A stretch of DNA of 64,000 bases from a virus (taxonomy: Duplodnaviria; Caudoviricetes), in the IMG/VR virus record IMGVR_UViG_3300032312_001422, positions 32,001 through 96,000 of that record, one strand, 5' to 3'. Positions within the stretch are counted from its first letter, which is position 1, and each line of letters opens with the position of its first letter. The translations under genes and the position numbers were made by a program. This document shows positions 6,579 through 61,816 of this stretch, piece after piece. The notes beneath the pieces were generated by a model. It searched no databases. It was not told the DNA's origin and was given only the letters and a program-made list of their open reading frames with translations.

Positions 6579-6895
6579 TGCAAATTATTTGGAATCAAGA
6601 AGCAGCAGAAAGTTTACGTACCAATCAAACTGTGTTGGAATTAGAAACATTCCCAGTTGGTGATCAAACCATTACCGCTTATTGTGTAGTTCCAGCTGAA
6701 CGAGTATTTCCAGACATTGCACGTTTAGAAAATCTTAAAGAATTGCATCAAGCCTTTATAACAGCACTCAATGAAAAGAATTATCAACTGTGTCAGGACA
6801 TAGCACCAAACCTTGTTGGGTCGTTTGCCGGCGAACTGGATAGTTTCTATCAAACCATACTGGATAAAATAACCAATGCAACAGATAATTCCTAA
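6578..6895 (+). CDS. Hypothetical protein
   Basis: 105-aa ORF coupled (TAATG) to upstream gene. Confidence 0.6.
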   Translation: MQIIWNQEAAESLRTNQTVLELETFPVGDQTITAYCVVPAERVFPDIARLENLKELHQAFITALNEKNYQLCQDIAPNLVGSFAGELDSFYQTILDKITNATDNS

Positions 6896-7982
6896 TTCTA
6901 GTTATGCATACGGTATTTACGAAACTGGATCAAAGCAGTATTTAAATAAAACAGATGCGTTGATAGAAGCAACACGCACTGGACAAGATGTGCATTGGAA
7001 TTTTCATGACAAAACATATGGTTCTATAGATTGGACAAAACGTCCAACCGGCACATTAAAAGAATTATATCAAAAAAGAGCACAACAAATACGTGACAAA
7101 TACGATTACATTGTTGTGCATTTCTCTGGCGGTGCAGACTCCTGGACTGTGTTAAATAGCTTTTTATCAAACGGTCTTCATGTCGATGAAGTGTTTAGCA
7201 GGTGGGCAAATTCAGCTGAACAAAAATATAAAACAGCAAATAATTTAGATCATCGAGAAAGTAATCTTTTTAGCGAGTACGACTTTGCTGCATATCCAGT
7301 ATTAAAAGAAATTGAAAAAAAATATCCAAAAACATATATTCATATTGATGATTACTCAACCGAGTATGAACACGATGTTGATGACAACAATCTTAGACAC
7401 GGCGGGCATTACCTGACCTTGGGAACCTTTTATAGATTTAGTCGTAAAAGCCCAGCAGAAGTTGCTGCCGCAGAATCCGGGAAACGTATAGCAGTTGTAT
7501 ACGGGTTTGACAAAATACAGTATTGTACAGAAAACAATAATATGTACGCATATTTTGTAGATAGATTTGGCGGAACTGATCAAGACCCTGCAAGACATGT
7601 TGAAGCATTTTACTGGAGTCCCGATCTTCCTGAGATTCCAGTTATGCAAGCCCACGATATGAAACGTTATTATGAAAAAAATCCTTTACTAACAGACGAG
7701 CTAGACAATTTTAATAGAAAAAGTTATGTTCATGTGTGTTATCCTGATTACAATCTTGATACTTTTCAAGTAGGAAAACCCATTGGTGCAGAAATATGGC
7801 AAAGCGAAATGTGGATACGACAACACAATCCTAGATACGTTGACTCTTGGCAATGGGCAATCAATCAATATATACACAACGTTGACGCAAGATTTTGTGA
7901 ATTTTTCAACAATAAACTCAGGCTCGGGTACAAAATGAACACTAGCAATATGTACTGCTTGGGTCCTATACTTCCGTTTTAA
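6876..7982 (+). CDS. PP-loop (adenine nucleotide alpha-hydrolase-like) protein
   Basis: IVVHFSGGADS PP-loop motif. Confidence 0.65.
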   Translation: MQQIIPNSSYAYGIYETGSKQYLNKTDALIEATRTGQDVHWNFHDKTYGSIDWTKRPTGTLKELYQKRAQQIRDKYDYIVVHFSGGADSWTVLNSFLSNGLHVDEVFSRWANSAEQKYKTANNLDHRESNLFSEYDFAAYPVLKEIEKKYPKTYIHIDDYSTEYEHDVDDNNLRHGGHYLTLGTFYRFSRKSPAEVAAAESGKRIAVVYGFDKIQYCTENNNMYAYFVDRFGGTDQDPARHVEAFYWSPDLPEIPVMQAHDMKRYYEKNPLLTDELDNFNRKSYVHVCYPDYNLDTFQVGKPIGAEIWQSEMWIRQHNPRYVDSWQWAINQYIHNVDARFCEFFNNKLRLGYKMNTSNMYCLGPILPF

Positions 7983-21974: not shown

Positions 21975-23198
21975 ATGAACGTAGGCTTTATAGGTTGTGG
22001 AAAATTAGGAATGGCTTGTGCTGAAACTATGGCAAGCAAACACGATGTCACTGGTTATGATATTTATCCGGTAAAAAGCGACAAAATAACTATTGCATCC
22101 ACTTTGCAACAGGCAGTGGAAGGCAAAGAGTTGATCTTTATTGCTGTCCAAACTCCGCATGATCCCATCTACGGTGGCGATCAACCAATTACTCATTTAA
22201 AGAACAAAGACTTTGATTATACTGTAGTCAATGATGTATTACGTCAAGTAAATGAATTTGCAACACCTGAGCAGTTAGTAGTTCTTATCTCCACAGTTCT
22301 TCCCGGCACTACACGTAGAGAACTGAAGACAAACATTACCAAGGCACGTTTCATTTATAACCCATACTTAATCGCAATGGGATCAGTAGAGTGGGACATG
22401 GTTAACCCAGAGATGGTTATCATTGGCACTGAAGATGGTAGCGAGACAGGCGATGCTCGCTTATTGACCGACTTCTATAATACATTAATGGAGAACAATC
22501 CACGTTACGTAGTGGGCACGTGGGACGAGGCTGAATGTATCAAGGTATTTTATAATACATTCATCTCGGCAAAGATTGGCCTGGTAAACATGATCCAAGA
22601 CGTAGCTGTCAAACAAGGCAACATCAATGTGGATGTAGTCACTGATGCATTGGCCAATTCAACCATGCGGATTATGGGACCCAAGTACATGACAGCAGGA
22701 ATGGGAGATGCAGGGCCATGTCATCCTAGAGATAACATTGCCTTGCGTTACCTTGCAGAAAACTTGGATCTAGGATATGATATTTTTGATACCATCATGA
22801 AAGCACGTGAGATTCAAGCCAAGAATATGGCACGTTACATTTATGATAACCGTACAGGACTTCCCGTTTACATCCACGGCAAGGCCTATAAACCCGGTGT
22901 GGCTTACCTAGAAGGCAGTTATAGTTTGTTGGTAGGTAGCTATTTGAAACAAATGGGTATAGACCCTTATTATATTGATCCGTTAACCGATCCAGCGACA
23001 GTACCGGCCAGTGTTGTGGGTTGCGTGTTGCTGGCACATAACCAACAGGTAACGTATGGCTATGCCGGTGTTACCGATAGACAACCACTGTATTCTGAAA
23101 TACTCAGTGGTAGTATTGTTATTGATCCATGGCGCAAATATACCACAGACAACAAAGAAATTTGTGTTATACACTACGGCAACACAAGACATCAATGA
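21975..23198 (+). CDS. UDP-glucose/GDP-mannose dehydrogenase family
   Basis: GFIGCGKLG Rossmann motif, STVLPGTT, YNPYLI, K..YN.F, AGPCHPRD. Confidence 0.9.
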   Translation: MNVGFIGCGKLGMACAETMASKHDVTGYDIYPVKSDKITIASTLQQAVEGKELIFIAVQTPHDPIYGGDQPITHLKNKDFDYTVVNDVLRQVNEFATPEQLVVLISTVLPGTTRRELKTNITKARFIYNPYLIAMGSVEWDMVNPEMVIIGTEDGSETGDARLLTDFYNTLMENNPRYVVGTWDEAECIKVFYNTFISAKIGLVNMIQDVAVKQGNINVDVVTDALANSTMRIMGPKYMTAGMGDAGPCHPRDNIALRYLAENLDLGYDIFDTIMKAREIQAKNMARYIYDNRTGLPVYIHGKAYKPGVAYLEGSYSLLVGSYLKQMGIDPYYIDPLTDPATVPASVVGCVLLAHNQQVTYGYAGVTDRQPLYSEILSGSIVIDPWRKYTTDNKEICVIHYGNTRHQ

Positions 23199-41907: not shown

Positions 41908-43362
41908 ATGTTATTCGAAATCCACGCTGAGCGTAACGCCTCAGACAAAAAAATCTTTTATTATGACAACGAAACCAACACTTTAAAAAGTGAAGATGGT
42001 ACAGTATTTGAGTACCCGCAAATACAGGAACAAAATCAGACACCATTTGTTCCTTTCGATCGCAACCGACCCTTGAAGAAAAGCCGTGCAATACAGTTAT
42101 TGAAGATCCAAATGGGACTCAGTTGTAACTATAGTTGCGATTACTGTAGTCAAAAGTTTGTGGAACGTGCTCCGGAAACTTCAAAGAAAGACATTGATCT
42201 TTTTTTAGAAAAATTCAAAGTGTTAGAGTTTGATGAACAAAAGGGACTCAAAGTAGAGTTTTGGGGCGGAGAGCCATTTGTATATTGGAAAACATTCAAA
42301 CCCTTGGCTGAAGCTATTCTGGAAAAATTTTCCCATTGGAAACGCAAGCCACAGTTCAGTGTGATCACCAATGGCAGCATACTCAATGAGGAAATCATTG
42401 ACTGGCTTATGAAGCTGAACTTTGTTGTGAGCATCAGTCACGACGGTCCGGGACAACATGTGCGTGGACCCGATCCTTTTGCAGATCCTGAAAAGAAAAA
42501 ACAGATCCTGGGATTTTATCGTCAAATGAGTCGACTCAAAAAGGGCTTTAGTTTTAATCCCATGCTGAATGCTCAAAACATCAGTCGTAAACGGATCTAT
42601 GATTGGTTTGTGGATTTCACTGGAGATCCCAATGTAGTCCTAGGCGAGGGCGGAATCGTAGACAGCTATGATGCGGATGGCATGCAAAACAGCCTGCAAA
42701 CCAAACAGCAACATTTTGAATTTAGACGTACAGCCTTTGCTGATATCTTTAGCACACAAGGGCAAATTGGATTCAAGATGCAGTTGGACAAAATTGATGG
42801 CTTTACACAAAGCGTGTTGAGTCATGCTGATTCCAAGTATCTGGGACAAAAATGTGGCATGGACAATGAAAACACCTTGGCCATTGACCTACGTGGTAAT
42901 GTGATGACTTGTCAAAACGTCAGCAGTCTTGAAACTGGCAAAAACGGTGAAAGCCACTTGGGTGGTAATTTAGATGACTATGACAACGTGGCCATCAAGA
43001 CAAGTACACATTGGTCGAATCGTGCCGAATGCCCCAAGTGCCCTGTGTTGCATCTCTGTAAAGGTGCCTGCATGTTCCTGGACAAAGAGTTTTGGGATGT
43101 CAGTTGCGCCAACTCCTATTCAGACAATGTGGCCCTGTTTGCCTTGGCCATAGAAAAAATAACGGGTTATATTCCCACCTTGATCAAACAAGATGAATTG
43201 CCTTTGGAACGTCAAGACATATTTGGTACCATATACCAGCACACAGAAACTGAAAAGAAACGCATTATACCTATCAAAATTGTCAGTGAAGTAGTTGGAG
43301 AAATTGAAGGTGTTGAAGTGTATGGGCAAAGTCGTGTAGAATCAGTCATAAATACTCAATAA
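41908..43362 (+). CDS. Radical SAM/SPASM-domain maturase-like enzyme
   Basis: CNYSCDYC, FWGGEP, ISHDG, KCG...DLRGNVMTCQ...CPKCPVLHLCKGAC...C. Confidence 0.9.
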   Translation: MLFEIHAERNASDKKIFYYDNETNTLKSEDGTVFEYPQIQEQNQTPFVPFDRNRPLKKSRAIQLLKIQMGLSCNYSCDYCSQKFVERAPETSKKDIDLFLEKFKVLEFDEQKGLKVEFWGGEPFVYWKTFKPLAEAILEKFSHWKRKPQFSVITNGSILNEEIIDWLMKLNFVVSISHDGPGQHVRGPDPFADPEKKKQILGFYRQMSRLKKGFSFNPMLNAQNISRKRIYDWFVDFTGDPNVVLGEGGIVDSYDADGMQNSLQTKQQHFEFRRTAFADIFSTQGQIGFKMQLDKIDGFTQSVLSHADSKYLGQKCGMDNENTLAIDLRGNVMTCQNVSSLETGKNGESHLGGNLDDYDNVAIKTSTHWSNRAECPKCPVLHLCKGACMFLDKEFWDVSCANSYSDNVALFALAIEKITGYIPTLIKQDELPLERQDIFGTIYQHTETEKKRIIPIKIVSEVVGEIEGVEVYGQSRVESVINTQ

Positions 43363-43374
43363 AGTGAATTTACT

Positions 43375-44283
43375 ATGACACTACCAGCATCAGGACAAAT
43401 TGCAATCAGCGACGTCAGCGCCAAAATTGGGCAGGCCGCCACTTTCTCCACAAGTTTAAATTTCCTCAATGGATTAATTCGTAGTGATCAACGCCCGGCC
43501 ACACCTAGCATGACTGCTTTTTACAACAAAAACTATTTTCAAAATACTGCCGACGGTGCCAACTGTGCCAACGGCAACTGCACAGCAAATTGCAACTGCG
43601 GCAATATTCAATGTACTAATTGTGTCATAACTGGCACGATTAATTGTGGCAATTGTGACAGTCAGGCCTGGTTGCAGAATAACTGTAACTGTGCCTGTAC
43701 ATATAACTGTACCAGTGCAAACACAAGTTATGCGTGTAACTGTGCCTGTAACTGTAGTAAAATTATCTGCGCCAAGTTATACGACTTTGGCCTAATGGAT
43801 CAAAATATTTGGGCAGCTGACCAAGCATACGGTCAGTGGTTGCGTAAGAAAGACCGTAGAGTATATCGCGGTTATGTTCGCTGGGCACGTATTGTTACTG
43901 CTTGGATGGACGGCAAAGGTCCCAACTACATGCCCTGGATCTTGGATGCTGACCGTCGTAGTGAGGCACAAAAGGCCGCTATCACAGACATGGCTATCAA
44001 GATCGGCACACCATGGTCAGAGCATATGGCCTACTTGATGGGTGCGTTGCCCGAAGACAACGTCCAAGGACGTATTCTAATGGAAATAGGTAAACCTATT
44101 TGCCGATTTGTCGATAGCTTACCACGTGTTGGTAAAAAGTCACGTCGCCATCGCTTACCAACATTATACACAATGTGGGCTTTGTTTTACTTGAGTTACT
44201 ACACTTCTTTGGTAGGTGCTCGAACTCATTTGTTTTTTAAAAGTTTTAGTTTTGACAAACTAAGACAAAGGACAATAAAATGA
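43375..44283 (+). CDS. Cys/Asn-rich virion-type protein; candidate radical SAM substrate
   Basis: MTLPASGQIAISD...FYNK N-terminus; 16 Cys in residues 63-127; separate C-terminal helical domain. Confidence 0.75.
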   Translation: MTLPASGQIAISDVSAKIGQAATFSTSLNFLNGLIRSDQRPATPSMTAFYNKNYFQNTADGANCANGNCTANCNCGNIQCTNCVITGTINCGNCDSQAWLQNNCNCACTYNCTSANTSYACNCACNCSKIICAKLYDFGLMDQNIWAADQAYGQWLRKKDRRVYRGYVRWARIVTAWMDGKGPNYMPWILDADRRSEAQKAAITDMAIKIGTPWSEHMAYLMGALPEDNVQGRILMEIGKPICRFVDSLPRVGKKSRRHRLPTLYTMWALFYLSYYTSLVGARTHLFFKSFSFDKLRQRTIK

Positions 44284-44918
44284 CCACGGTCATTGATGAA
44301 AGTATTTTTTCCAGTAGTGTGAAACAATCATTATGGGAATGTCCGGTGTGGCACCAAAAAACTCCGTTTACAGAAACGTTTAATAAAGAGTTGTTGAAAG
44401 AAATGTACGAGATTGCTAGTACGTTTGACGAATCCTCAGGGAAAGAATCCCTATTAGATTATGATCGTCCCTGTATGCAAGAATTAATTGACTTTAAGAC
44501 TGAGGTAATCACCAATGTTGTCAATCAATACATGCCAGACACGCAAGAAGCCCGGTTTGTTGTATCGGGTGCTTGGCTTAATGTAAACACAGCCGGAGAA
44601 CGAATCGAACTTCATGCACACCCCGATTCGTCTATAGCTTGTAGTTATTACATACAAGGACCAGATGTTGGCGGTGAGTTTTACTATGTTGATACCGGCA
44701 GAGTTGGCGAGCACCGAACAGAAATTAAAACAATAACCCCTAAAAATGGCGACATGATATTTTTGCCATCGTATGTGCTACACGGAGTCAAGATGAATCT
44801 GGGGAGATGTAGAGTAAACCTGACTACAGATTTTAAACATGACCTTACCAAAGACAGCAAGGATCAGTTAGTGTTGAAAAGTTTTATAAACAGTATGCTA
44901 AGGATTAAGGATTTATGA
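44280..44918 (+). CDS. Putative 2OG-Fe(II) oxygenase (TIGR02466-like)
   Basis: WLNVN...HAH.DS...YY...G...IFLPSYVLHGV. Confidence 0.8.
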   Translation: MTTVIDESIFSSSVKQSLWECPVWHQKTPFTETFNKELLKEMYEIASTFDESSGKESLLDYDRPCMQELIDFKTEVITNVVNQYMPDTQEARFVVSGAWLNVNTAGERIELHAHPDSSIACSYYIQGPDVGGEFYYVDTGRVGEHRTEIKTITPKNGDMIFLPSYVLHGVKMNLGRCRVNLTTDFKHDLTKDSKDQLVLKSFINSMLRIKDL

Positions 44919-45313
44919 GCGATATTATTGTAGGCAAGCAACCAGTAGATTTTGATGCTGAAGATTACAACCGATATGTCAAGTATTTTTTAGACACTGA
45001 AGTTGGCGGTATTGTGTTCAATCTCACCAAGGATGAACAAGACAGCTTCTTTGAGATGTGTTATCGATATCCTGTCATATTAGACAAAGTGTTTTTGCTA
45101 CCCGGTGATCCTTTAATGAATTATATCATGTATGGTAACGAATTTTATGATGCACTCAAAAATCCACATGATGGTATTGACTTTAGTCCAAGCTACATTG
45201 TGGCTCAATATCGAGAGTGGGCTAAGGCACGCAATATACCCGAGCCTGTAGATCAAGTGGCAGTTGAAGGCTTAGATGTCACACCCATGCTGGAATTCCA
45301 AAAACAGCTATGA
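44915..45313 (+). CDS. Hypothetical protein
   Basis: ATGA-coupled within oxygenase cluster. Confidence 0.6.
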   Translation: MSDIIVGKQPVDFDAEDYNRYVKYFLDTEVGGIVFNLTKDEQDSFFEMCYRYPVILDKVFLLPGDPLMNYIMYGNEFYDALKNPHDGIDFSPSYIVAQYREWAKARNIPEPVDQVAVEGLDVTPMLEFQKQL

Positions 45314-45876
45314 ATCGGTACTATACTAAGTTAGATAGTATTAGTCCAAGCCTGTACAACAATTTTGAAAACCTAGGCGAACAACACGTTTGCGGCGGTG
45401 GATGGACTAGATACTACCGCACCAACTTGAGCAGAAATATACTATTGCCAGACCACTTGAAGCAGAGTTTTAATCTAAGCTACATGACATTTATTGGCGA
45501 CAATGCTCATCCACATGTGGATTTAGAGATAGGTTGTAGAATAAACATATATCTGTCTGACAATAAATGCCCAACCAAGTTCTTTAGTGTAAAGTCTGAG
45601 GAATTTACCAAACCCAAACCAGTCACGTGTGTAGGGTGTACAGTAGAAAAGTTCTGTGCTGGAGAGTGCCAGTGCAGTTACAAACTTGATAATCTAATGT
45701 TAGAGGATGAATTCGTAGCCCGCAAACACGACATATACCTGTTAAATATTCGCAAGATACACAGCGTAGAAGGACTCAGTAAAACCAATTACAGAGAAGC
45801 CCTGTCGTTTACCACCGATCTTTCTTATGAAACAGTATACGAATCTTTACAGCAATATGGCGCATTCTCTGTTTAA
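45310..45876 (+). CDS. Putative Fe(II) oxygenase (cupin) with Cys-rich insert
   Basis: PHVD...IHSVE...REALS; CVGC...CAGECQC insert. Confidence 0.55.
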   Translation: MNRYYTKLDSISPSLYNNFENLGEQHVCGGGWTRYYRTNLSRNILLPDHLKQSFNLSYMTFIGDNAHPHVDLEIGCRINIYLSDNKCPTKFFSVKSEEFTKPKPVTCVGCTVEKFCAGECQCSYKLDNLMLEDEFVARKHDIYLLNIRKIHSVEGLSKTNYREALSFTTDLSYETVYESLQQYGAFSV

Positions 45877-46384
45877 AAAACTTGCTGTAGCAGCCAATAT
45901 TGATTTTAAAATTCTAGATAAGAAAATAGAATTTGAGTTAGACTCTGCAGGTCGCCGAATACAATACTCCAACGTATCTTCACGCTACGTAGACAATTTC
46001 ATAGCTGGTCTTGGCCATCACGGAAAGCATTTTTATACAAGTTTTGTCAGCGTAGAAACAAATGTGCCGCCACACACAGACATTGTTGATCGAGTCAACA
46101 TCAACTTCTACATAGAAACAGGTGACTACCAAACTACGTTTTACAGAAGCAATGACAACTCAGCACGATTTACCTATGCAGATCACGGCGATGGTCATGC
46201 GTATCGTATAGAAGAACTAGAGCCTGTGGATAGTTTTGTTGCCCAACCCGGCGATGTGTACATTTTAAATGGTAAAAATATTCACGGAGTTGCCTGTACA
46301 GAGCCTACACCAAGAAAATTTTTGCAAGTCTCTACCAACCAGTTAGAATATGATCAAGTTTTAGAAATTTTGAATCTATGTTAA
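45857..46384 (+). CDS. Putative Fe(II) oxygenase (cupin), paralog of 45310-45876
   Basis: PPHTD...NINFY...IHGV...RKFLQ. Confidence 0.55.
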   Translation: MAHSLFKKLAVAANIDFKILDKKIEFELDSAGRRIQYSNVSSRYVDNFIAGLGHHGKHFYTSFVSVETNVPPHTDIVDRVNINFYIETGDYQTTFYRSNDNSARFTYADHGDGHAYRIEELEPVDSFVAQPGDVYILNGKNIHGVACTEPTPRKFLQVSTNQLEYDQVLEILNLC

Positions 46385-47082
46385 TGTTGATCTATACCAT
46401 TGCAACAATTCACCTGGGCTGTGCAGTGGCTTCGTTGTACATGCATCGGTATGTGATACACAGACAGTATCGTATGACTCCAAGAACAGAAATGGTCATG
46501 AAAGTCATGTATTGGATGTTGTTTGATGTGGTCACTAGAGAGTTTGTGGTACAACATAGAAAGCATCATGAATTCTCAGACACATACAATGATCCTCACA
46601 GTCCGAGATTTGGTTTTTGGTCATTGCTGAGATCTTGTCTGGTTCCAAGCTTCTTTAGATCCTACAAAATAACTGTGTCCGATTCGGAGTATCAGCGATA
46701 CGGTGCCGAGACTGCCACCAACACCGTTATTGATCGACACCCAAGATTGGGAGTTGTATTGTTATTGGTAATAAACATTGTGTTGTTTGGTTGGTTGGGT
46801 ATCATTGCGTGGATCGTCCATTTGTTTGCTGTGAATTTTTTAATAATAACAACAATAACAGTATTTGGGCATAGCATTGGCGGCAGGAACTTTGATCTTG
46901 GCGACTTTACTCGTAATGTTGTTCCTGTTGGCATATTGTGTGTGGGCGAAGAGCTACACAACAATCATCATAAAGATAGCAGGCTGTATAACATGGCTAT
47001 AAATAAAAATGAATTCGATCTAGGATTCTTTTATCTACAACTTTTAAATCGATTTGACTTGGTTCAATTCAAACAAAAATGA
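46378..47082 (+). CDS. Membrane fatty-acid desaturase-like protein
   Basis: His boxes HRYVIH, HRKHH, HNNHH. Confidence 0.85.
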   Translation: MLMLIYTIATIHLGCAVASLYMHRYVIHRQYRMTPRTEMVMKVMYWMLFDVVTREFVVQHRKHHEFSDTYNDPHSPRFGFWSLLRSCLVPSFFRSYKITVSDSEYQRYGAETATNTVIDRHPRLGVVLLLVINIVLFGWLGIIAWIVHLFAVNFLIITTITVFGHSIGGRNFDLGDFTRNVVPVGILCVGEELHNNHHKDSRLYNMAINKNEFDLGFFYLQLLNRFDLVQFKQK

Positions 47083-47678
47083 AAATAACTAAAACAGACA
47101 TGTGGGTGACCCCAGTGTGGGAAATTCAAACCGACTTTGACCAACAGTTCAACAACGAACTGCTGGACGAGCTTGGGCAGTACTGTGATCCCGAATCGGA
47201 TGTGGGCAACTCTAATATCTGGAACTGTGACACGCCACGAGTACAAGAACTAAAAAAATACACTATCAAAGTAGTCAAATCACAAACATACGATTACATA
47301 GCACCAACTGTCAAAGACTTTGAATTCTGGCACGCCCGTGGTTGGTTAAATTATCACAAGACAGGTGAAGGTATTCCCATACACGGACATGGTAGCCCTA
47401 AGATTGCAATGACCTACTATGTCAAGGCTCCCGACAACTGTGGGGATTTGTTACTGATAGATCCTCGCAACGGTTGCGACTGGGATTCAGGCAACGATGG
47501 TGTCAATGGTACCAAGTTTAACAGAATTAAACCAGTCGAAAGCAAACTGGTATTTTTCCCAGGGTTTGTATTACACATGGTCGAACCCAATCAGTCTGAC
47601 CAAGTTAGGGTATCTGTAACCAGCAACATGGGCACATTTGATAAAAGTACTGCTCAAGCATTTAAAAATACACTATAA
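47079..47678 (+). CDS. Putative 2OG-Fe(II) oxygenase (TIGR02466-like)
   Basis: WLNYH...IHGH...YYVK...DPR...VFFPGFVLHMVEPN...RVSV. Confidence 0.8.
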   Translation: MKITKTDMWVTPVWEIQTDFDQQFNNELLDELGQYCDPESDVGNSNIWNCDTPRVQELKKYTIKVVKSQTYDYIAPTVKDFEFWHARGWLNYHKTGEGIPIHGHGSPKIAMTYYVKAPDNCGDLLLIDPRNGCDWDSGNDGVNGTKFNRIKPVESKLVFFPGFVLHMVEPNQSDQVRVSVTSNMGTFDKSTAQAFKNTL

Positions 47679-47687
47679 GGATGTACA

Positions 47688-48479
47688 ATGTCATTCTATG
47701 AAAAATTAGACTTTATCAAATATGATCATGACCGCCTGGTGACCGATGTGCAACAACATGTGTTCAGTCTGGGACAAGCTGTTATACAGGGCGAGGAATA
47801 TGAAACCGATGCCTACAAGGGTTTTGGTGGATGGAGTCTGCAGAGTCAAACCGGAGACTGGCAAGACGGCTGGGAATTTTTTCAAAACGAAGAAGGCACC
47901 ACTATTGAAGAAGTATTCTTTCCCAAGGATGCTAACAATTACACTACCTTAAAATACTTTAATATTGCACATTCTTTAGAGTACAAAAAGCCCACACAGG
48001 GCTATTGCGGTGAGATTGCCGAGGTGATTGATCAAATAGAGGCATTCGGCTTGACACCTAGACGAGCCAGAGTAACCTGTTTAAAAGCTGGTAGCAAAAG
48101 CCTAGTACACAGAGATTGTGGTGAAAACCAATACATGGCACGTATACACATACCCCTGATCACCAATCCTGAGTGTACTTTTACTGCCGAAGGAGAAACC
48201 TTATACATGGAACCCGGTACGGCCTACATGGTCTGGGTAAATGTGTGGCATCAGATTCGCAATGATTCGGAACAAGATCGATATCACATAATTATGGATG
48301 CTTACGATACCAGACATGTCACAGATAAGTTCAAGTACATGGGTGATATTAGCCAGTTGGAAACCTTTGCCAACGAATTGCGGCAACAGGTTGATCAAGC
48401 TGTTGTTACTGCAGATTTGGAACAAAAGTTTGAAACTGAATTGGCAAAATGGCGAACTAAATCCAAGGTTGACACATAA
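47688..48479 (+). CDS. Asp/Asn beta-hydroxylase-like 2OG oxygenase
   Basis: RARVTCL...VHRD...RIHIPLITNP...WHQIRN.S..DRYHII. Confidence 0.8.
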   Translation: MSFYEKLDFIKYDHDRLVTDVQQHVFSLGQAVIQGEEYETDAYKGFGGWSLQSQTGDWQDGWEFFQNEEGTTIEEVFFPKDANNYTTLKYFNIAHSLEYKKPTQGYCGEIAEVIDQIEAFGLTPRRARVTCLKAGSKSLVHRDCGENQYMARIHIPLITNPECTFTAEGETLYMEPGTAYMVWVNVWHQIRNDSEQDRYHIIMDAYDTRHVTDKFKYMGDISQLETFANELRQQVDQAVVTADLEQKFETELAKWRTKSKVDT

Positions 48480-48497
48480 GTTTAATAAGTATATAAT
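48469..48497 (+). promoter_or_regulatory. Consensus sigma70 promoter of tmRNA
   Basis: TTGACA-N17-TATAAT perfect match. Confidence 0.85.
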
Positions 48498-48503
48498 ATT
48501 AAT

Positions 48504-48803
48504 ATTGTTGTAATTCCTTCAAATTGAAGGCGCTGTGGACGGGAGTTCGATTCTCCCCGGGTCCACCAAAAGGAGATTAGCATGGATCATGAAGCTGTAT
48601 TGCTTGGTGCATTTGTTCTAATAGGATTAGTCCTAGTCTTTTTTTGATGGGCCCGACCGGTTTCGACATGGTGAGCTAGAAGAGAAGGAAACAGGACACA
48701 GATAGTCCTAAAAAGTAAATAACGTAAACGCAAACGACGAACAGTTCGCATTGGCAGCCTAACAGCCGCCTAGGGTAGGAAATACCTCGTAACAGAAATC
48801 ACC
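48504..48803 (+). ncRNA. ssrA: Circularly permuted (two-piece) tmRNA
   Basis: T-arm GGGAG-TTCGATT-CTCCC and CGGGTCC-A-CCA (ends 48568) precede 5' end GGGCCCG (48649); G3:U70 pair; tag ANDEQFALAA-stop at 48730-48762; ends approximate. Confidence 0.9.
48582..48647 (+). CDS. 21-aa hydrophobic peptide ORF inside tmRNA intervening segment
   Basis: AGGAG at 48571, MDHEAVLLGAFVLIGLVLVFF-stop. Confidence 0.45.
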   Translation: MDHEAVLLGAFVLIGLVLVFF

Positions 48804-48823
48804 AGAGCCCCTTCGGGGGCTCT
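48804..48823 (+). terminator. GC-rich hairpin after tmRNA
   Basis: AGAGCCCC-TTCG-GGGGCTCT. Confidence 0.75.
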
Positions 48824-48844
48824 AATATTTCCATACAAACACAC

Positions 48845-50110
48845 ATGAAAAAAACGTCACTGACAACCATTGCCGCCAGTACAATTGGCACAGTATTTGA
48901 ATGGTATGATTTTGTTATCTTTGGCTTGGCCAGTGTTCTTGTTTTTAATAAATTGTTTTTTCCAAACATTGATCCAGCTCTGGCCCTGGTAGTGTCAATG
49001 CTGGCCTATGCGGTGGGCATTGTAGCACGACCATTGGGTGGTATCATCTATGGCATGATAGGCGACAGGTTTGGTCGAAAACGCATGTTGACCACTACCA
49101 TGTTGCTTATGGGCATCAGTACTTTTATAATTGGTGTGTTGCCTACATATGATGCTATTGGAATATGGGCACCTGTTATTTTGATCTTGCTAAGAATTAT
49201 ACAAGGTATTGGCATTGGCGGCGAGTGGGGAGGAGCCAGTGTTATAGTACAAGAACATGCACCCGACAACCGTCGTGGTTTTTATTGTAGTTTTGTACAA
49301 ACAGGACTGCCTATGGGAATGTTAATGGCATCGGGTATATTTGCTGTGCTGAATTTGATGTTGAGCGAACAAGAGTTTCTTGCCTGGGGGTGGAGAATCC
49401 CGTTTCTGTTGAGTGCAGTCTTGGTGATTATTGGCACAGTTCTTAGACATCAAATTTTAGAAACTCCGGTGTTTTTAAAACTAACACCTCCCACAAATCC
49501 CATTAACGAGCTATTTACAAAATATCCAACAACCTTGTTCAAAGGTATCGGACTTAAAATAACAGAAAGTGTTTGGTTTTTCATAGTCACAGGTTTCATT
49601 GTCGGCTATGCTGTAAACAATTTTAATATACCAAAAAAAGATCTGTTACAAATTGTAATGATGGCCAATGCTGTCAGTATTGTGTGGACCGTGATAGTGG
49701 GTTACGTGTCAGATCTAATAGGACGACGTCCAATATTTTTCTTTGGATCTGTTTTTACAATGATCATGCCGTTTCCATTATTTTATTTGGTTGGCACCGG
49801 CGAGTTTGCAATGATTGCCACAGCAATGATAATAGGACAATGTATTGGTAGTACCACAATGTTTGCTGTTTTATCATCATACCTGCCAGAGATATTTCCT
49901 CCTAGTGTACGAAGCATAGGCAGTAGTTTGAGTTTCCAACTTGGAGCCGCTGTAACCGGTGGCATAGTTCCTGTGTTGGCCGCCTGGGCAGTTGGATACT
50001 GGGGTAGCAACTATGCTGTTTGTATCATCATGATGCTGTTTGGTGCAATTACTTTTGTATCTGCTTACAGGTCTAAAGAAACATTTCGCTTGGCGACAAA
50101 TAAATTATGA
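48845..50110 (+). CDS. MFS transporter, metabolite:H+ symporter (ShiA/ProP-like)
   Basis: GTVFEWYDF, RPLGG..G..GDRFGRK, QGIGIGGEWGG, SDLIGRR; 12 TM. Confidence 0.92.
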   Translation: MKKTSLTTIAASTIGTVFEWYDFVIFGLASVLVFNKLFFPNIDPALALVVSMLAYAVGIVARPLGGIIYGMIGDRFGRKRMLTTTMLLMGISTFIIGVLPTYDAIGIWAPVILILLRIIQGIGIGGEWGGASVIVQEHAPDNRRGFYCSFVQTGLPMGMLMASGIFAVLNLMLSEQEFLAWGWRIPFLLSAVLVIIGTVLRHQILETPVFLKLTPPTNPINELFTKYPTTLFKGIGLKITESVWFFIVTGFIVGYAVNNFNIPKKDLLQIVMMANAVSIVWTVIVGYVSDLIGRRPIFFFGSVFTMIMPFPLFYLVGTGEFAMIATAMIIGQCIGSTTMFAVLSSYLPEIFPPSVRSIGSSLSFQLGAAVTGGIVPVLAAWAVGYWGSNYAVCIIMMLFGAITFVSAYRSKETFRLATNKL

Positions 50111-60238: not shown

Positions 60239-61816
60239 ATGAAAGTTAAAAAAATCATAGTCGTAGGCGGCGGAACCGCGGGCTGGCTCAGTGCTGGTTT
60301 TTTGTCGAATCAACTGCCCGGCATAGAAATCACTGTGATACACAGTAAAGAAGTTCCTATCATTGGTGTAGGCGAAACCACAGTACCACAGTTCCGTAAT
60401 CATTTGGAAAAAATGGGCTTACAAGAAGATGTATGGATGCGTGAGTCGGGTAGTACGTTCAAGTACGGAGTTACTTTTGATGGATGGCGTACAGGCACCG
60501 ATACTCGCTGGCACGGCTTTGGTGATTTTATCACAGAAAAAGGTATTAGTCACAGCGTAGACGAATTTGGCAAGCGTGTTAGTTGTGCCAAAGACGACTC
60601 TGTACTAGTAGCTGACTACTGGATTGAGATGCTCAAGCGTGGCATTGTCACAGAAGCGGATTACTATCAATACGCATCAGACACATATCATCTAGTACAA
60701 AATCGTCGTGCTCACAGAGACCTAGCAGGACACCAGTATTCAAGTCGTGTGCCCGGCTATGCTTACAACATCAACGCATTCAAAGTTGGCCAAACTATTC
60801 GAGACAAGGTGGCCTTTCCCAACGGTGTTCGTGCCCTAGAGCGTCATATCGTACGAGTTGATCGTAACGAACGTGAAGAAGTCACAGGCATTGTGGACGA
60901 TAGCGGGGAAACACATACCGCAGACTTGTACATTGACTGTACCGGTTTTAAACGATTGCTAATTGGGCCCGTGGCCAAATGGGTCAGTTACGAAGATCGA
61001 CTACCTTGTAAAAATGCCATTGGCGGTCGTGTAAACTATCAAGGCAAACAAGAAGAATTCTGCGTACCTAACCTGCATGCCACAGCATTCAAGCACGGTT
61101 GGTCTTGGCGTGTTCCCTTGCGTGACGACATGGGTTCGGGTTATGTTTATGATACACGTTATACTACCACCGAACAGGCAATTGAAGAGCTAGGTGCTTA
61201 CTGGCGTAATCTAGGGATGGAGTGGGATCATAAAGTTACCTTAAAATTTGATAATGGTATTTTAGATCGTTCAGCACACCGCAACGTTATTGCTTGTGGC
61301 TTAAGTTCAAACTTCCTGGAACCCCTAGAAGCAACCAGTATCAGTTTCACTACACTTATCAATGAGCTAGTAGTAGCAGTATTGAAGAAACATGACAATC
61401 AATGGGATGACAAAAATGCCGAAGTTATTAGCAGACTTATGCACCGAGAAGTTAAGATCACTGGAGACTTCCTATGGGCACACTATGCCTTGACAGAACG
61501 TAGCGACACAGAGTTCTGGCGTGAGCAAGCTACCAAACGTGAGGAAGCTGTGGACATGGTACACGGATGGTTTGGTCGACATTTTAGCGATATCTATCGT
61601 AGAGAAAAAGACTTTGACCACACACGTTATAACAAGTACGATTGGGCACAGACTATTACTACCATGCGAGCATTTGCGGATTGTCCTACTAGACCTATTA
61701 ACGAAGCATTATTGCCACGTGCAAAACTATGGTATCAACATCGCGATGAAATGGCACGTGGTGTTTTAGACTTGGTGCCAACACACTGGGAATTGATCAA
61801 ATATATCAATAGATAA
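60239..61816 (+). CDS. Flavin-dependent (tryptophan) halogenase family protein
   Basis: GGGTAG, IGVGETT, TFKYG, DCTGF, WSWRVP, FLEPLEATSI. Confidence 0.9.
   Translation: MKVKKIIVVGGGTAGWLSAGFLSNQLPGIEITVIHSKEVPIIGVGETTVPQFRNHLEKMGLQEDVWMRESGSTFKYGVTFDGWRTGTDTRWHGFGDFITEKGISHSVDEFGKRVSCAKDDSVLVADYWIEMLKRGIVTEADYYQYASDTYHLVQNRRAHRDLAGHQYSSRVPGYAYNINAFKVGQTIRDKVAFPNGVRALERHIVRVDRNEREEVTGIVDDSGETHTADLYIDCTGFKRLLIGPVAKWVSYEDRLPCKNAIGGRVNYQGKQEEFCVPNLHATAFKHGWSWRVPLRDDMGSGYVYDTRYTTTEQAIEELGAYWRNLGMEWDHKVTLKFDNGILDRSAHRNVIACGLSSNFLEPLEATSISFTTLINELVVAVLKKHDNQWDDKNAEVISRLMHREVKITGDFLWAHYALTERSDTEFWREQATKREEAVDMVHGWFGRHFSDIYRREKDFDHTRYNKYDWAQTITTMRAFADCPTRPINEALLPRAKLWYQHRDEMARGVLDLVPTHWELIKYINR

Follow-up and report, generated by a model that had tools for sequence, protein, structure and literature searches.

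The permuted tmRNA locus

The window, i.e. the whole 64,000-nucleotide stretch analysed here, covers bases 32001-96000 of a 288,815-bp virus record; it is of uniform base composition, with densely spaced genes that run in one direction. A major capsid protein of the T4 type, Gp23 (E 4e-99), is encoded in the record and identifies its phage as a T4-like jumbo phage; the source is a giant, uncultured freshwater phage of 289 kb. At 48455-48827 the Rfam model beta_tmRNA (RF01850) matches with 160 bits (cut-off 84), the model tmRNA_permuted (RF04321) matches the same locus with 115.8 bits (cut-off 47), and ARAGORN calls a permuted tmRNA with the tag ANDEQFALAA. The acceptor stem is formed by GGGCCCG pairing with CGGGUCC and has a G.U third pair, a CCA is encoded upstream of the 5' strand, and the tag frame is present; judged from sequence, the gene is a two-piece, permuted tmRNA of the betaproteobacterial (beta) type. 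A gene for SmpB was not found in the phage record. The parts of the locus, all on the plus strand, are as follows.

48469..48497, + strand: sigma-70 promoter of the tmRNA precursor, TTGACA-17 nt-TATAAT (12/12 consensus matches; aligns with the promoter block of the RF01850 model)
48506..48568, + strand: acceptor piece of the tmRNA (RF04321 and RF01850 alignments, sequence)
48541-48557, + strand: T-arm of the acceptor piece (Rfam alignments)
48558-48564, + strand: acceptor 3' strand CGGGUCC (Rfam alignments, sequence)
48565-48568, + strand: encoded ACCA (Rfam alignments, sequence)
48567..48580, + strand: 5' arm of the predicted closing stem, holding AGGAG 48571-48575 (MFE and centroid fold)
48569..48648, + strand: intervening segment of 80 nt, cut out on maturation (insertion in both Rfam alignments)
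48582..48647, + strand: 21-codon ORF plus TGA, product MDHEAVLLGAFVLIGLVLVFF (sequence; 65% T at codon position 2)
48633..48646, + strand: 3' arm of the predicted closing stem, shared with the final four codons and a portion of the stop (MFE and centroid fold)
48649..48827, + strand: coding piece of the tmRNA, beginning with the 5' acceptor strand GGGCCCG (ARAGORN, Rfam)
48730-48762, + strand: tag reading frame, ANDEQFALAA (ARAGORN, Rfam)
48804-48823, + strand: terminal hairpin of the coding piece (ARAGORN, Rfam)

The limits of the intervening segment follow from the end of the encoded ACCA at 48568 and the mature 5' G at 48649. Directly upstream of the tmRNA, at 41908-48479, lies a co-directional run of genes for a radical SAM enzyme, two 2OG-Fe(II) oxygenases, a fatty-acid-desaturase-like protein and an Asp/Asn hydroxylase-like protein; this run from radical SAM enzyme to hydroxylase is shared with the phages of three other tmRNA loci (L082, L263 and L227) at 53-73% identity. 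The same phage also carries tryptophan-halogenase-like and UDP-glucose-dehydrogenase-like genes, at 60239-61816 and 21975-23198 (PHROG E 4e-92 and 2e-96, respectively).

A reading frame in the intervening segment and its counterparts in other phages

The original prediction held that a peptide gene is hidden in the intervening segment. Its description of the frame is accurate: the Shine-Dalgarno sequence AGGAG at 48571-75 is separated by a 6-nt spacer from the ATG at 48582, and the 21-codon hydrophobic frame ends with a TGA at 48645-47, 1 nt ahead of the mature 5' G48649. The product, MDHEAVLLGAFVLIGLVLVFF, has an acidic N-terminus followed by one uninterrupted hydrophobic helix. By itself the frame says little, as the interior remains open in 29% of shuffles of this loop, which is unremarkable, and the sequence is a singleton: neither the loop nor the peptide has a close relative in our viral-contig or metagenome scans. 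Scored against a profile of the other loop peptides, MDHEAVLLGAFVLIGLVLVFF reaches 0.5 bits, with a shuffle mean of 1.9 and 758 of 1000 shuffles scoring as high, and Pfam, the S23p family included, gives no match to it even at E up to 10. Since openness of this one loop is weak evidence, it is comparative data that decide the coding question.

Loops were collected in two ways. The first scan searched viral contigs for permuted tmRNAs with 60-90-nt loops and was blind to loop content; it yielded 110 distinct loops, 15 with an early ATG open to the terminal stop and 95 without. The second was keyed on the first six loop bases only and gave 52 distinct loops, 45 of them with such an ORF. Pooled, the scans contain 47 distinct ORF loops of the same layout in viral contigs, in which frame 0 is open in 47/47 cases, frame +1 in 0/47 and frame +2 in 15/47, while shuffled interiors of the same loops stay open in a median of 19% of trials. 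Codon position 2 is 63% T, and all length differences among ORF loops are whole codons. In the first scan an SD-like leader occurs in 13 of the 15 ORF loops and 4 of the 95 others (Fisher p 9e-12, a value that ignores relatedness among the sequences).

The comparison of synonymous with non-synonymous changes, which had been suggested together with the prediction, reveals a purifying bias in the class. Across 19 independent, non-overlapping sister pairs, to which the singleton peptide of the window does not belong, 42, 15 and 76 changes fall on codon positions 1, 2 and 3; 78 of these 133 changes are synonymous, where 24% would be expected (pN/pS 0.22, p 4e-17). When the first codon and the last five codons, which overlap the stem, are dropped, the interior codons still give a pN/pS of 0.25 (p 2e-13); read in the two alternative frames, these sites yield 0.66 and 1.96. 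Taken together, the open frame, the pN/pS values and the SD leaders indicate that the loops of this class encode peptides which are selected as peptides.

The loop peptides fall into about a dozen families of 17-27 residues, some of them mutually unalignable; in most of them the N-terminus is acidic and leads, often by way of a glycine around residue 10, into an uninterrupted hydrophobic run. A Pfam search with seven of them returned nothing significant, and none of the seven was present (0/7) in an exact-sequence look-up in a collection of 15 billion proteins. Among loops of 91-120 nt, ORFs are found in 30 of 95 distinct cases, some of the frames running into the mature RNA. To these longer loops (101-107 nt) belongs a Cys-rich family with the start MKYTALCPSCF, a CxxC and a later Cys (L181, L200, L201, L283, L208), whose frame bypasses the terminal UGA and does not stop until it is within the mature tmRNA; a Trp-rich family with the start MFENWHW (L099, L175, L192) behaves likewise.

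The loop of the window has the layout of the class, with an SD-like leader in the 5' stem arm, an ATG 5-9 nt further on and a frame closing at the terminal UGA. The nearest tmRNA body, that of L304, is 86-87% identical by two measures and carries an ORF-type loop with the same leader. It is on this architecture and this nearest relative that we base the membership of the window's ORF in the class. One might argue instead that in this particular phage the ORF is unexpressed, a chance or decaying frame in a U-rich, stem-closed spacer that happens to resemble the functional cassettes. The singleton status of the sequence, the absence of a profile match beyond composition and the 29% of shuffles that stay open would agree with this, as would the existence of decayed loops such as L131, which has an RBS and an ATG but an early stop, and the fact that ORF-less loops are the majority (95 of the 110 distinct loops). 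Nevertheless, AGGAG, a 6-nt spacer, an in-frame ATG, 65% T at position 2 and a hydrophobic helix occur together almost only in the selected class, and the L304 loop points the same way, so that we regard an unexpressed frame as unlikely. The proposal of a gene hidden in the intervening segment is thus very probably right: the segment very probably carries a real gene for a 21-residue membrane peptide, the class of loop ORFs being under purifying selection as protein, and we have good confidence that the window's ORF is a working gene.

The closing stem and access of the ribosome

It had also been predicted that a 14-bp stem, 48567-48580/48633-48646, closes the loop and buries the RBS. This stem, which includes three G.U pairs, is indeed both the MFE and the centroid structure (-24.7 kcal/mol); the loop fold has a z of -2.7, with 4 of 200 shuffles folding as well, and the stem is kept in the predicted fold of the whole precursor, where the unpaired probability of the SD is 0.00. 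In models of nascent RNA whose end lies before 48640, opening the SD takes 2-6 kcal/mol and its unpaired fraction is 70-87%; with the 3' arm present, these modelled values change to 11-13.5 kcal/mol and 0%.

The further idea of a possible dual-function switch is not supported in the form proposed: the stem is not purpose-built for one, as an 11-12-bp stem in the same register and the UGAU or UAAU end are found in ORF-less loops too. Pairing with the 3' end keeps a fixed register and involves about 11 of the first 12 bases of the loop, in 44 ORF and 77 ORF-less loops alike; stem covariation is abundant among the ORF-less loops, and 103 of 120 loops end in UGAU or UAAU, with or without an ORF, as does the loop of the window (48645-48648). 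The UGAU faces the ACCA tail (A-U, C.A, C-G, A-U), the C.A mismatch being conserved, and the terminal UGAU/UAAU may be a processing determinant. As the stem and the UGAU are shared with ORF-less loops, burial of the RBS follows from geometry; stem and stop, as far as the loop sequences tell, belong to a generic precursor hairpin rather than being adaptations to the ORF. Between L046 and L088 a compensatory change of a stem pair replaces Ile by Val and keeps the frame. Stems of ORF loops are also weaker (median -7.9 vs -11.8 kcal/mol, the p-value of this difference being inflated by relatedness of the sequences), with more G.U and fewer G-C pairs, which fits a compromise with ribosome access. 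As for the claim that translation and tmRNA maturation are mutually exclusive, what emerges is narrower, a modelled timing conflict on one molecule at one moment, since a ribosome at the stop codon would occupy the 5' acceptor strand, rather than a demonstrated switch.

Could loop translation then act only in cis, timing or chaperoning the folding and processing of the tmRNA precursor, with the peptide as a by-product? The RBS and the stop do lie inside the processing stem, the terminating ribosome would sit on the acceptor strand as just described, the stems of ORF loops are weakened, and RBS accessibility switches sharply in the model once the 3' arm appears. We nonetheless think this quite improbable, because amino acids are conserved at interior codons outside the stem (pN/pS 0.25), hydrophobic helices recur across mutually unalignable peptide families, and an ORF is lacking from most tmRNAs of this type, which mature nonetheless.

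The explanation that we favor, and hold to be probable, is that the spacer of this jumbo phage's permuted tmRNA carries a genuine small membrane-peptide gene. Transcription of the whole unit would start at the consensus sigma-70 promoter. Of the spacer, 12 nt at the 5' end would act as leader and RBS, and the 66 nt that follow would encode a 21-residue single-pass membrane peptide, the stop being the UGA in the UGAU with which almost every loop of the class ends, ahead of the mature 5' G. Because the spacer must also form an 11-14-bp hairpin that extends the acceptor stem, the two arms of this hairpin are made up of the RBS and the last codons. On the modelled folds, the ribosome would most likely load in the brief interval in which the RBS has been transcribed and its 3' partner has not. 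It would translate once and leave, whereupon the stem would close and lock the RBS, and tRNA-type processing would free the two tmRNA pieces. We suggest that the peptide probably acts in the inner membrane of the host early in infection, as a membrane-active or membrane-protein-modulating factor.

The resemblance to type I toxins noted in the original prediction did not carry further. A type I toxin-antitoxin-like module would consist of a membrane-damaging peptide restrained by RNA structure or by an antisense RNA; size and hydrophobicity are like those of Ibs, Hok or TisB-type toxins, and, as with hok mRNA, pairing of 5' and 3' parts locks the RBS. Yet the analysis turned up neither an antisense partner nor any other feature of type I toxin-antitoxin systems: a consensus scan gave two minus-strand promoter-like sites upstream of the ORF, both directed away from it, and none into it. 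In addition, no Pfam toxin family was matched, the basic C-terminus common in such toxins is absent from the loop peptides, and these peptides occur in lytic-type T4-like phages. We consider a toxin module very unlikely.

A different possibility, again improbable in our judgement and resting on modelled folds, ties the loop message to trans-translation, as a non-stop mRNA whose peptide is tagged and destroyed. An RNase P cut would leave the stop 1 nt from the 3' end of an intermediate consisting of acceptor piece plus loop, and 3'-to-5' trimming toward the CCA end would remove the stop and the 3' stem arm first, freeing the RBS; in the model, such trimming lowers the cost of opening the RBS from 11 to ~6 kcal/mol. 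If this were true, tmRNA activity in the infected cell would be reflected in, or would limit, the level of the peptide.

Exchangeable loops and comparison with known systems

Whatever the peptide does, the membrane-peptide gene is not a fixed part of the tmRNA. Unrelated loops, with a membrane peptide, a Cys-rich ORF or no ORF, are found on tmRNA bodies that share 97-99.6% identity over 200 nt or more. Phages sharing the upstream radical-SAM-to-hydroxylase cluster (53-73% protein identity) have structured, ORF-less loops, and one phage sharing a ligase cluster at 71% has a loop ORF of another family. The expectation that ORF and RBS are conserved in homologous loops was therefore borne out in part: many loops keep both, but the nearest syntenic phages lack them. 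From the ORF-less loops of these syntenic relatives it follows that the gene is dispensable, a facultative cargo and not part of tmRNA biology proper. Read in this way, the loop sequences indicate that the loops are exchangeable cassettes and that uncultured phages keep many small genes in the spacer, which would be a permissive, strongly transcribed slot where phages swap small genes. These comparisons use aligned pairwise identities of the tmRNA bodies; on a tree of the mature tmRNA parts the ORF trait is scattered, and the resolution of the tree is too poor for it to be used.

Downstream of the tmRNA, at 48845-50110, a gene for a 421-aa protein of the MFS/sugar-transporter family starts ~20 nt past the terminal hairpin, without an obvious RBS. 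A transporter is an unusual phage cargo. A functional tie between the loop ORF and this gene was considered and dropped, as the MFS neighbor is absent at every other ORF-type locus.

The distribution of the loops is narrow. A metagenome scan anchored only on the acceptor stem of the window's tmRNA found 17 loci, 3 of them ORF-type and none near the loop of the window. In the genomes of ~186,000 species this loop type is nearly absent, the sole match being a 7.6-kb MAG contig in which the ORF is present. The cultured phages SM1 (L312, Pseudomonas), XacN1 (L313, Xanthomonas) and Xoo-sp13 (L314) have beta-type permuted tmRNA genes that are unannotated in their GenBank records. No ORF-type loop was found in these three phages, which have long, structured loops; every frame contains stops in the loops of XacN1 and Xoo-sp13, and the SM1 loop was judged by eye only.

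Other contents were seen as well. In L083, a phage permuted tmRNA at 6867-7095 (RF04321, 90 bits) follows three other tRNA genes, and a complete tRNA-Asn gene (6920-6992) lies within its intervening segment; a tRNA in this position was called a unique feature of one sequence in the 2025 tmRNA database paper (PMC11915505). The ORF-less loops L263, L029, L056, L095 and L108 contain T-arm-like GGTTCGAxTCC hairpins, as if derived from tRNA fragments.

The intervening segment of permuted tmRNAs has been treated as disposable, and gene callers never report peptides so short. If the loop ORFs are translated, the precursor of a stable RNA doubles as a messenger, and annotation at present overlooks a whole class of phage membrane micro-proteins. 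For cassettes, the tmRNA spacer would offer a defined site with high expression, whose conserved flanks could act as recombination arms, and with RBS and stop overlapping the processing hairpin it would be a compact natural system in which to study how translation competes with the maturation of an RNA.

Transcripts that are both a functional RNA and the message for a small peptide are known, as in SgrS/SgrT and RNAIII/delta-haemolysin, and in such dual-function or structure-locked mRNAs, hok mRNA among them, the RBS can be hidden by long-range pairing. Here, by contrast, message and functional RNA are separated by processing, and the coding part is the part that is discarded.

The locus shares with known betaproteobacterial permuted tmRNAs (RF01850, RF04321; PMC11915505) the order of acceptor piece, CCA, intervening segment and coding piece, as well as the tRNA-like domain, the G.U third pair and a tag ending in ALAA. 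The intervening sequence is absent from the mature tmRNA, and the only contents noted for it are one tRNA-Ala and one repeat element; protein-coding content is not described there, whereas the segment studied here holds an ORF (PMC11915505). Our full-text literature searches likewise returned no description of tmRNA loop ORFs. Two-piece tmRNAs are also known from aquatic myophages, namely the OM43 phage Melnitz and pelagimyophages (PMC9004378), which are, like the present phage, T4-like aquatic phages with their own permuted ssrA and an early-type promoter. Their tmRNAs are of the alpha type, while the one described here is of the beta type, and the Melnitz paper treats a riboswitch and phylogeny and leaves the intervening segment unmentioned (PMC9004378).

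The nearest published analogues are of two kinds. One is the ORF-bearing intervening sequence of Coxiella burnetii 23S rRNA (PMC4990558), likewise a stem-closed spacer that is excised from a stable-RNA precursor and has an ORF inside. The Coxiella element is 428 nt long, lies in rRNA and carries an ORF of a known protein family, S23p, whose product, according to the abstract of that study, is apparently not made in vivo (PMC4990558); the ORFs described here are 17-27 codons long, membrane-type and situated in tmRNA, and as a class they are under clear purifying selection. The other is the homing-endonuclease genes within group I introns of tmRNA genes (PMC11915505), where a protein gene is likewise nested in a part of the precursor that is removed. 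Those introns are self-splicing, lie in the T-loop and encode a mobility enzyme, whereas the spacer described here is no intron, has no mobility gene and is taken to be removed by tRNA-type processing.
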